From: a virus
Taxonomy: Duplodnaviria > Heunggongvirae > Uroviricota > Caudoviricetes
Virus record (IMG/VR): IMGVR_UViG_2531839664_000027
DNA length: 64,000 nt
Reading direction: 5' to 3' (one strand)
A program made the position numbers. How positions within the stretch are numbered: the first letter of the stretch is position 1; every line of letters begins with the position of its first letter. Positions 12,001 to 15,000 of this stretch are shown piece after piece.

Positions 12001-15000
12001 TTGCCAGGCTCAGGAAGTGGAAGGCGTGTTTGAATGTCGAGTGGTGGACAGTCATAGAAGTAAATTCTATAAAGCTCAAGCGGTTCCCTACGTTCTTGTG
12101 ATTGACGTTTTCCATTAAGATGGGAAAGAACCATTGACCATATTACTTTCATTATGCATTGCGCAGTCAGTTCATGCTCGGCGAAGTGTTTACGATGCGT
12201 AGCATGAACACGCTGCATGAAAAAACCCGCATCAATTAAAATTGCTGCTTTCTTCATAAGAGTCCCAAAAAAATAGCCCAGAGCCGTTATGCAGATATTA
12301 ACAATTGTCTGCGAACGGGGCTGGGCTTGGTTTAATTAATCTATGCCAAGTTGACTGTGCCGTCAACATAAAACTTACTTCCTATCACCCAAACGTCTCT
12401 TCACTCATCCGAAGAAGCAGCAATCCGGGTCAGCACGCACAAGCTCAAGCGCATCAGTCAGCGAAAGTTCAGTACTGTACTGATGCCATTTCATATCCTT
12501 CCGCATCCAATAGATTTTCCATCTATCCAGAGAACGTATGTACTTGATTCTTGCTGATGGCAGGATGTTTGTTTCACCTGGATTGCCCTGCCACACGGGG
12601 CGCTGTTCGCCGATATCTATCGTTTGGTCATTGATGCTATAAACAATATCCAGTTCATTGCGGATATGTTCAGGCGGCCTTATGCTTTCAATGAATTGGT
12701 GAACTTCTTTTTTGACCGCTTGATATTCAAGGTCAGTGAACGCCATCTATCCTCCTCACCCAAACGTTTCTTCTGGCCACTGGTTACCAGCTATGTGACG
12801 ATGAAGTCACGAACTTTTCAGCCACTCCCTTGCCTCGATGTCATCCAGATGGCGAGACTGCTTCAGAATACCAGCCACATACTCCACCTTTGCTACTTGA
12901 TGATAAGGTAACGTTATTGGCCTGTGGTCTTGGTTAATGCTTGTAAATTGGTATTCTCCGTCTCTGTCATAGCCAAGAACCTTGATCATGTTGTGCCCTT
13001 CAATGGTTCTGACAAACACCTCATCACCCGGGAATACTTTGGTGTTAGGCTCAATGAGTACATATTCTCCTGATTTTATTCTGGGCCACATGCTGTCTCC
13101 TTTCACACGAAGACCAAAGGCATCTGGATCATCGCTATAAATCTTGAGCCACCCATCGCGCTCTTCGGTCATCTCGATGGCACCATCAACACCAAGAATT
13201 GCCTCACCAACCACGCGCACTAACCCTTTTTTTAATTTGCCAACAAATGAAAGAGTATCTTCATCATTCGCCCCATTTAACGAAGTGCCGTGCTGAAGCC
13301 AAACAACATCAACATTTAGAAATTTCGCAAGCGCATTCATTTTTTCCTGACGCGGTAAAGACTCAGCATTAAACCATTTGCTAACGCCTTTGGACGAAAG
13401 AGAAAGGGCACGGGCTATGGCCATCCCCCTACCATGTTCATCAAGACCAGCTTCTTTACAGGCTTGCGCTAGCCGCTGGGCGAATTCTTTGCGCACTTTT
13501 TCATTCTGAACCATGAGTACGATACTAAAGCACTTGCAAAAACTTTCAGTTCAACCATAATACGTACTGAAAGTACGAAAAAGGATATTCCTATGCAAAA
13601 TCTTGATGAGCCGATTAAAGGTGTCGGCATCCCTGAAGTTGCGAAGGCTTGTGGAGTTAGCGAAAGGGCTGTCTATAAGTGGCTCAAAAACGGCTTCCTC
13701 CCTAAGACTGAGTTTTTTGGGAAAACTAAATACGCATCAAAAATCGAAGAGATTTCTGGTGGCAAATATCAAGCAAGCGAAATGCTTGAAATAAGCAAAA
13801 AGAACCTTCTGGCTGCATAAGTAACACCGCTCTTTATCAATCTGCACCGCCGACAACGCGGTAACTAATTAAGAACTCATCGAAAGATGAGTATTAGTGA
13901 TTATTTACCTATGGAAATAGTAAGAAATGGAACAAACAAGTTACAGCAAACTATCACAGCGCGACGTTGATCGCGCAGAAACAGATTTACTCATCAACCT
14001 GTCAACGCTTACCCAGCGCGGTCTGGCAAAGATGATTGGCTGTCATGAATCGAAGATAAGCAGAACGGACTGGAGGTTTATTGCTTCGGTCTTGTGTGCT
14101 TTCGGAATGGCATCAGACATCAGTCCGATTAGCAGGGCTTTTAAGTATGCGCTTGATGGACTCACCAATAAAAAACGCCCGGTGTGCAAGACCGAGCGTT
14201 CTGATCAAATACAAATGGAATTTTAACAACATCCAGCGAGGTAATTATATGCGAAACAAAGGCTTTAATCCACCTGATACACACAAAGAAGCTAAGCGTT
14301 TGCGCTTCCTTCGTTCCATTGATGAAAGAACTCAAATCTCTTTTGTGAAAGTTGCCAGAACTGAGCTTCTGAAGGCTGAGGCGAGGGCGTTGCTCCCGTC
14401 TCTACCAAAAGAGGAGGGATATACGTTCATTCCAAACGCATTTCTGGAAAAGCTGCTCAAAGAAGACATATCCGTAAGTCAGTTTAACGATGTTCTTAAG
14501 GTCTTTCGTCAAGGCAGGTAGTTATGAGCAATACAGCAAAAATCTACGATTTCAGCGCCGCACACGAGCGCAGGAGCAACAGGATGGAGAACCAGAAAAC
14601 TGGTTACATTCCGTTGTACCGGAGCATTCTGAAACAGTCATGGGCGAAAGATGTTTATCTTCGCACCCTGTGGGAAAACCTTCTCCTGAATGCCACCAGA
14701 AAGCCATACAAAGCGAATTTCAAAGGTCATGAATGGCATCTGCAACCCGGTCAACTGGTTGTGACAGCAGCTGATTTAGGTCTTCAGTTATGCGACAGGC
14801 ATGGCAAGCCAGCAAGCCGCGATCAGGTTGAGCGGATGCTTCAGGTTTTTGTGAAAGAGGGGATGATCACCATTGATGGAGAGAAGCAAAAAGGTCGTGT
14901 GATTACCATCACAAATTACCATGAATATGCTCAAAAAATGGACGATTCACCCGCACATGAAGCCGCACAAACGACCGCACATGATGCCGCACATGACGAA

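Follow-up and report, generated by a model that had tools for sequence, protein, structure and literature searches.

Why should a long hairpin followed by a run of U residues stand directly in front of a nuclease gene in the immunity region of a Shiga toxin phage? The question is raised by a stretch of 64,000 nucleotides (IMG/VR record IMGVR_UViG_2531839664_000027), here called the window, which represents a Stx2a prophage of Escherichia coli O121 and over 1.6 kb shows 100% identity with strain RM8352 as well as with the LC6160xx Stx2a phages. On the minus strand the order is a cI-type repressor gene, an open reading frame (ORF) for a DUF3024 protein, a 147-nt spacer, an ORF for a NYN-domain nuclease, a compact hairpin and a PL-like promoter, with the long hairpin lying in the spacer. 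The analysis leads us to conclude that this hairpin is a leader RNA, strongly conserved and so far unannotated, which belongs to a widespread nuclease carried by prophages. With moderate confidence, we regard it as a promoter-proximal, leaky intrinsic terminator (attenuator) formed by the first ~60 nt of the NYN transcript.

The hairpin and the start of the NYN transcript

Sequence reading, RNAfold and covariation place an imperfect hairpin of 53 nt and 17 bp on the minus strand at 12275–12327. It comprises a basal helix P1 of 7 bp, a 2x2 internal loop (CC/CU), P2 of 5 bp, a 1x2 internal loop (C/AU), P3 of 5 bp and a 12-nt apical loop, CAAUUGUUAAUA, so that the minus-strand RNA from 12327 to 12275 reads AGCCCAG-CC-CCGUU-C-GCAGA-CAAUUGUUAAUA-UCUGC-AU-AACGG-CU-CUGGGCU. 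Directly 3' of the stem is an A + U7 tract (12267–12274, with A12274 and the seven U residues at 12273–12267), the predicted termination zone, and beyond it a weak Shine-Dalgarno sequence, GGGA at 12266–12263, and a spacer (together 12258–12266, from sequence reading) lead to the NYN ATG at 12257. A preliminary description of this DNA, which reported an imperfect hairpin of ~55 nt with a U-run before the NYN start codon, is borne out here, since 12267–12327 is exactly the hairpin plus its U-run. The distance of 15 nt that it gave to the ATG is approximate, the U-run ending 9 nt and the stem 17 nt before that codon.

The same description proposed RNA folding as a check, and the fold proves stable, at about −25 kcal/mol. 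In RNAfold an 81-nt piece containing the hairpin reaches −25.9 kcal/mol (z −3.87), and the primary transcript from 12331 to 12266 reaches −25.0 kcal/mol (z −5.56), none of 200 shuffles being as good in either case. The minimum free energy (MFE) fold also pairs CCA (12330–12328) with a UGG beyond the U-run. When placed in a 201-nt read-through context that includes 110 nt of upstream RNA, the hairpin remains an element of both the MFE and the centroid structure, and that context offers no antiterminator-type alternative structure, the feature that would mark a riboswitch or an attenuator working with an antiterminator. Within the window there is no second copy of the hairpin; TRF found no tandem arrays and the repeat search no relevant tandem repeats. 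The one antisense site for the apical loop in the window carries one mismatch and is within chance. A literature search for the literal hairpin sequence returned 0 matches.

A promoter belonging to the NYN gene had been anticipated inside 12405–12746. Such a promoter exists, but at a different place: in the minus-strand interval from cI to NYN the promoter scan identifies a single promoter-like site, the sigma-70 promoter P_NYN at 12338–12366 (−35 TTGACG at 12366–12361, a 17-nt spacer, −10 TAGATT at 12343–12338), which lies upstream of the hairpin rather than downstream of it, and no such site on that strand inside 12405–12746. Diverged relatives keep the TTGAC(A/G/T) −35 and TA...T −10 elements, 9 nt from the hairpin base, with a changed spacer sequence. 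A palindrome, TTGAC-N6-GTCAA at 12351–12366 (minus strand), overlaps the −35 element, and the same spot in diverged relatives carries palindromes of altered sequence (TGACG-N4-CGTCA, TTGAC-N6-GTCAA, GACA-N5-TGTC); it may be an operator for some dimeric regulator.

That the promoter is active is known from Cappable-seq of strain EDL933, which recorded a primary 5' end at 301886(−) of NZ_CP008957.1 in 8 of 8 conditions, with a relative read score (RRS) of 96–716, and for which bTSSfinder calls the ttgacg/tagatt boxes (PMC10469882 supplement). Through a 100% identical match (H106), this position equals window 12331; a comparison of 66 nt shows no difference in the EDL933 copy, and related O157:H7 genomes are 99.6–100% identical from 12403. 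The transcription start site (TSS), A12331 on the minus strand, lies 7 nt after the −10 element and 4 nt before the stem, giving an RNA that begins 5'-ACCA and continues directly into AGCCCAG, and therefore the hairpin constitutes the 5' end of NYN's own transcript. In the same EDL933 prophage the leaderless cI TSS has an RRS of 153–523 (PMC10469882 supplement), and thus the activity of the NYN promoter is approximately that of PRM. Besides serving NYN as its 5' leader, the hairpin would obstruct read-through from cI. The EDL933 data also contain an antisense TSS at 301683+ (window 12128, plus strand; 7 of 8 conditions) in the 5' part of the NYN ORF, aimed toward the start codon and hairpin, and a weak internal sense TSS at 301699− (window 12144, minus strand).

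Covariation was assessed on 14 distinct enterobacterial copies (class A), whose NYN proteins are 69–100% identical. Standard pairs occupy 98.3% of the pair cells, and double-sided changes occur in 5 of the 17 pairs and single-sided changes in 0, values that were matched by 0 of 500 shuffles and by no slid register. Among the covarying examples, GCAGA/UCUGC becomes GUAGA/UCUAC, and GCCCAG/CUGGGC becomes GCCCGG/CCGGGC, GGCUUGG/CCAAGCC or GCCUAG/CUAGGC. A U-run of at least 5 is present in all class A copies, and the bases of the internal and apical loops are essentially invariant. Nucleotide identity to the window is 80–100% for the hairpin, 68–88% for the NYN ORF and 51–73% for the 73 nt upstream, so among these relatives the hairpin is more conserved than the coding DNA of the gene that it precedes, and the leader gate is the most conserved part of the NYN module.

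A probable leaky terminator

In the mechanism that we favor, the constitutive P_NYN starts RNA synthesis at A12331, and the RNA folds at once into the 17-bp hairpin, followed by A-U7. Most polymerases, whether they come from P_NYN or by read-through from cI/DUF3024 (PRM, PRE), would stop at ~12270–12267 and release a hairpin RNA of ~62–65 nt, while a minority would continue and produce a NYN mRNA with a protective 5' stem-loop, a U-rich tract and a weak Shine-Dalgarno sequence. The net effect would be a low level of nuclease, uncoupled from transcription of the repressor. The form and placement proposed earlier, a terminator or attenuator that cI/PRM transcription meets before it reaches NYN, agree with what is found; NYN does possess a promoter of its own, and the idea that the nuclease is kept low fits. 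We take termination to be partial because the hairpin is long and rich in loops and because NYN can be expressed only by read-through. An RNA of ~63 nt is predicted to be abundant in EDL933, which makes this a readily testable case.

Two lines of evidence underlie the predicted terminator function: the form of the element and a natural experiment in another phage. Regarding form, G-C accounts for 5 of the 7 pairs of the basal helix AGCCCAG/CUGGGCU, which is the G+C-rich stem expected of an intrinsic terminator, and the A + U7 tract provides the expected U-tract of at least 4–8 nt within 0–2 nt of the stem. The natural experiment is contig L167, which represents late-region DNA of a lambdoid phage of the Enterobacter type and is the sole exception to the association with NYN among 41 IMG/VR contigs. 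Here an identical hairpin with U5 follows a Q gene and a PR'-like promoter at a distance of ~290 nt; a tRNA-Arg(UCU) gene stands 2 nt beyond it, and holin and lysozyme genes come next. In CobraSix, a relative, the position in front of this tRNA is taken by a different small hairpin plus TTTTTTATT; as this is again a hairpin with a U-run, the spot is a terminator (tR') slot.

L167 thus places this very hairpin within a lambda-type PR'-tR' unit, the arrangement known from 6S RNA and from the StxS small RNA (sRNA) of Stx phages (PMC7547250). The NYN unit shares with it a constitutive promoter, an intrinsic terminator tens to hundreds of nucleotides on, a short RNA and downstream genes that need read-through. 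It differs in lying within the immunity region, where it serves a single accessory gene, with no Q-binding or pause element identified, and in that its terminator begins at +5, the RNA being the hairpin alone.

Several properties of the element weigh against this assignment. For a terminator the hairpin is unusually long; it has a 12-nt loop, two internal loops and a low free energy per nucleotide, and it departs from the compact design of a short stem with a loop of 3–8 nt. The consensus terminator scan, in which loops were limited to 3–8 nt, did not list it because the 12-nt loop exceeds the 8-nt limit. By the d'Aubenton-Carafa formula, in a hand estimate rather than tool output, it lies below the classical terminator threshold, and an A separates the stem from the U-run. 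Homologues in Rhodanobacteraceae keep the 5' hairpin with the U-run displaced or absent, and therefore termination may not be the ancestral role. A search of the literature on enterohemorrhagic E. coli, including Neuhaus 2017, Tree 2014, Sy 2020, a 2026 sRNA paper and the Pas sRNA preprint, found no RNA 3'-end, Northern or sRNA data for the element. Finally, the invariant loop bases are unnecessary for a plain terminator; they suggest, more weakly than the form suggests termination, that the RNA may also be recognized by a protein, most simply NYN itself.

Some of these properties would be accommodated if there were no appreciable termination and the 5'-terminal stem-loop instead stabilized the NYN mRNA in the manner of the ompA 5' untranslated region, the U-run acting as an S1-binding translational enhancer beside the weak Shine-Dalgarno sequence. 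We consider this improbable. The hairpin is indeed atypical as a terminator, it lacks an adjacent U-run in the Rhodanobacteraceae homologues, and in class A the U-run abuts the Shine-Dalgarno sequence. The TSS, just 4 nt before the stem, is inside the known distance limit for 5' stem-loop stabilizers, which was reportedly set out by Emory, Bouvet and Belasco in 1992, and a stable hairpin within 4 nt of a 5' triphosphate end is what the NYN leader and the ompA-type stabilizers have in common. The latter, however, are not followed by a U-run and have no conserved loop sequences tied to one gene family. Stabilization leaves the invariant loops unexplained, and in the other leader classes described below the U-run lies 20–60 nt from the start codon yet always directly after the stem, even in GC-rich genomes. 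The identical hairpin in the tR' slot of L167 likewise argues for termination.

The hairpin as part of the NYN module

To which gene does the hairpin belong? In 5426 complete E. coli genomes the hairpin was located 290 times and the NYN 5' end 289 times, both within one set of 275 genomes; of 41 IMG/VR contigs with the hairpin core, 40 have the NYN ATG 15–28 nt downstream of it. The hairpin travels with the NYN gene and not with cI or DUF3024. The possibility of a dispersed REP-like element was rejected on the ~1:1 ratio of its copies to NYN.

BLAST break points show the mosaic nature of the region. The cI-type (LexA/S24) repressor gene (12807–13514, minus strand; assigned from its ORF, domain scans and BLAST comparison) and DUF3024 match 933W-like prophages up to window 12380, where those prophages continue after DUF3024 with a hypothetical gene and the Stk kinase gene, with no NYN and no hairpin. 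The segment 12403–11319, which holds the spacer, the hairpin and NYN, is found again in the rexAB position, immediately after a lambda-type cI, in strain E166, phage Lambda_2B8 and the cryptic prophage CP-933H of O157:H7 (EDL933). The left boundary of the module, at 12380–12403 on the minus strand, is a relic of the 3' end of a lambda-type cI (...EETFG*), as judged from the mosaic break points and by comparing it with phage 2B8 and with lambda. The DUF3024 ORF is flanked by two copies of an 18-nt direct repeat (94% identity), at 12385–12402 and 12756–12773, the first of which marks that left boundary; read on the minus strand, each encodes ...EETFG-stop, the C-terminal sequence of lambda-type cI. 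The repeat marks either an insertion of DUF3024 at an earlier cI-NYN junction or a recombination hotspot at the cI 3' end.

The break points and the flanking repeat therefore identify DUF3024 and NYN as independent inserts. The view of the two genes as one cassette, put forward in the preliminary description, does not survive this comparison, as they are separate mosaic modules joined at the 18-nt repeat, each found without the other; a single DUF3024 + NYN system was rejected on the same independent distribution. The DUF3024 ORF (113 aa, 12405–12746, minus strand) is thus the upstream neighbor of the NYN unit and a module separate from it. Its protein matches the PADLOC single-gene defense candidate PDC-S43 end to end (E 7e-42), and in 933W-type phages its gene lies between cI and the Stk kinase gene.

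This distribution bears directly on the simplest account of the hairpin, in which it is a mere terminator of the cI(-DUF3024) operon and the promoter-like site upstream of it is incidental. Its location downstream of cI/DUF3024 and its terminator form agree with such a role, and PRM and PRE transcripts of cI would reach it by read-through. The hairpin segregates with NYN, however, and is missing from 933W-like prophages that have this cI and DUF3024; experiment shows the promoter to be active, its TSS lying at the hairpin base, and the same arrangement is found at chromosomal NYN loci without an upstream repressor. We therefore consider a terminator serving the repressor operon highly improbable, the account being largely refuted by the distribution of the hairpin and the mapped TSS. 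This changes the reading of the immunity region in these Stx2a phages and in the lambda-immunity cryptic prophage CP-933H of O157:H7: NYN is an autonomous unit with constitutive transcription, probably gated by its leader, rather than a distal part of the repressor operon.

The closest positional counterpart is lambda rexA-rexB with PLIT and timm. Both occupy the slot between cI and PL, both are accessory units expressed in the lysogen, and both have a promoter of their own besides PRM read-through and a terminator before PL. The analogy drawn earlier with rexB and an internal promoter of the PLIT kind breaks down: PLIT lies inside rexA and bypasses no terminator, whereas the NYN promoter is not inside the upstream gene and precedes a terminator-like leader, so the hairpin would attenuate NYN's own transcript too. 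The proteins are also unrelated. Comparison of the lambda cI-rexA spacer with the NYN module shows only the first ~35 nt after the cI stop in common; the lambda spacer (L179, 1816–1927) contains a small hairpin, GGGGA-AUUUUCAC-UCCCC, with no U-run.

The NYN unit can also be described as a phage moron. It has its own promoter and TSS, a terminator at 11392–11371 and a variable presence between backbone genes, and it shares with morons the presence/absence polymorphism among related phages and expression from the prophage. This terminator-like element, found by the terminator scan, is a compact hairpin of 8 bp, 6 of them GC (11371–11392, minus strand), which stands 3' of the NYN stop and closes the module. 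Unlike ordinary morons, the NYN unit has a conserved terminator-like hairpin between its promoter and its gene.

Distant leaders and a possible partner role of the RNA

Upstream regions were examined for 80 genomic homologues of NYN and for those carried by temperate phages of Burkholderia, Moraxella, Dorea and Streptococcus. A promoter-proximal hairpin with a U-run precedes NYN homologues of Proteobacteria, Acidobacteria, Bacteroidota, Firmicutes and their temperate phages; at most loci outside Rhodanobacteraceae, this long hairpin lies just 5' of the start codon. A promoter element suited to the lineage is found ~9–13 nt before the leader hairpin (for Proteobacteria a sigma-70 −10, for Bacteroidota a TAnnTTTG box), and the U-run is kept even in GC-rich genomes, where U-runs are not background. 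Together with the conservation of unpaired bases in class A, these comparable elements before NYN in other phyla point to something more than a generic terminator. The NYN family comprises 7029 clusters at E<=1e-10, annotated just as NYN, LabA or nuclease, and elements of the same architecture stand uncatalogued ahead of thousands of its genes across phyla. An Rfam 15 scan gave no match at E<=1 at the window hairpin or at the equivalent elements of 16 diverse NYN loci.

The leaders designated class C, a large class found in Proteobacteria, Acidobacteria, Elusimicrobia and the phages phiE202 and Mcat4, consist of P1, in which covariation occurs, an internal loop (5' CAGUAC / 3' CGAnC), P2 and a U-run. 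From its signature and established knowledge of motifs, the AGUA/GA internal loop is probably a loop-E or sarcin-ricin-like motif. A covariance model (R1) built on the class C leaders, covering P1, the CAGUAC/CGAnC internal loop, P2 and the U-run, matches solely the position upstream of NYN, scoring 55–75 bits at 18 class C loci and a weaker but significant 12–26 bits for Bacteroidota, Firmicutes (Dorea) and class E elements. The window hairpin, an enterobacterial variant, went undetected by R1 at E<=1 and falls outside class C as that model defines it. The window element has position, architecture and gene association in common with class C, but R1 does not establish homology between them. 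The Rhodanobacteraceae loci (L061–L110) hold chromosomal, syntenic NYN homologues with a GC-rich hairpin directly after a TAGAAT/TAAAAT box, ~60–100 nt upstream of NYN. They share a recurrent CAUCC-like motif, which class C RNAs also carry, at their 5' end and within their apical loops.

The nuclease is encoded by a continuous ORF of 285 aa at 11400–12257 on the minus strand (Pfam NYN, E 6.8e-9). Its AlphaFold (AF2) model has a predicted local distance difference test (pLDDT) score of 86, the best fold match is the MARF1 NYN ribonuclease domain (5yaa), and the acidic residues D9, D69, D164, D170, D189 and D191 are invariant; a PDB sequence search with the protein gave no meaningful match. The gene stands alone as a cassette within lysogeny modules of temperate phages that are unrelated to one another, at the rex position, after P22-type c2 or in the repressor-integrase interval, and its homologues are also found in varied chromosomal contexts, often next to repressor or integrase genes. 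Current genome annotation mis-splits the ORF and ignores the RNA: in RM8352 the RefSeq/PGAP annotation makes two features, a "pseudogene" and a 146-aa NYN protein, out of the intact, identical 285-aa ORF. A genuine truncation is seen in O157:H7, where a deletion beside an integrase remnant leaves a NYN gene of 129 aa, with promoter and hairpin retained and active.

The combination of a structured RNA with a nuclease gene resembles toxin-antitoxin (TA) systems of type III, such as ToxIN, AvcID (PMC10511110) and AbiF of C. difficile (10.1101/2025.04.15.648962), which likewise have a promoter, a structured non-coding RNA, a leaky terminator and a co-oriented nuclease or toxin gene and are carried on mobile elements and prophages. 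The NYN unit has the layout of an RNA gene with its own promoter, a terminator and a co-oriented gene, the RNA here being itself the terminator hairpin. It departs from classical ToxI, CptI and TenpI in that its leader is without tandem RNA repeats, and the NYN fold is not that of ToxN/AbiQ, AvcD or HEPN.

On this basis, we tentatively entertain a further proposal, that the hairpin RNA acts in trans as a partner of NYN, either as its antidote or as a ligand for feedback, within a toxin-antitoxin or abortive-infection module of a type III-like kind. A strong promoter and a leaky terminator might provide an excess of RNA over NYN, which the RNA would bind and restrain, a scheme to which we assign a rather low likelihood. 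Equally speculative is its sequel, in which an infecting phage would shut off host transcription, the RNA would decay and NYN would be freed. Such a partner role extends the leaky-terminator explanation and does not exclude it. It draws on the layout of promoter, structured RNA, terminator and nuclease gene seen in ToxIN and AvcID, on the ribonuclease fold with an intact acidic site in the predicted model, and on the occurrence of NYN as a solitary cassette in lysogeny modules of unrelated temperate phages and in varied chromosomal contexts. The unpaired bases invariant in class A, and the AGUA/GA internal loop of the distant classes, a typical protein-binding surface, are in keeping with it. 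RNA classes also track protein clades, but co-inheritance alone could account for such matching. The protein has weak PADLOC similarity to HEC-09 and NYN, although these matches are marginal (E 2e-4 and 1e-3); the absence of tandem repeats and of a ToxN/AbiQ-type toxin counts against a partner role. A literature search for NYN with an RNA antitoxin or an anti-phage role found nothing specific.

If the partner role held, the locus would be a candidate for an undescribed two-component module of a small structured RNA and a NYN nuclease, in which the leaky terminator would set the ratio of RNA to protein and the RNA would serve as antidote or sensor; we think this rather unlikely as things stand. 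With similar reserve, the module could be a non-repeat, type III-like TA or abortive-infection system of temperate-phage lysogeny modules from Proteobacteria to Firmicutes, its commoner form, with the loop-E-like AGUA/GA internal loop, being a new and widespread RNA family absent from Rfam. Were the RNA truly the partner of the nuclease, this would be a new and very widespread type of RNA-protein defense or TA system at the classical rex locus.

Two further features of the window lie outside the NYN unit. An ORF for a 797-aa DnaB-like helicase (15468–17861, plus strand) contains an apparent intein-like insert in its P-loop (GMGK / ... THN / T) and is split into two partial genes in the PGAP annotation. 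An IS3-family insertion sequence at 9236–10449 (plus strand), with two ORFs and a frameshift site, disrupts an Nmad5-family gene located between N and the recombination genes.

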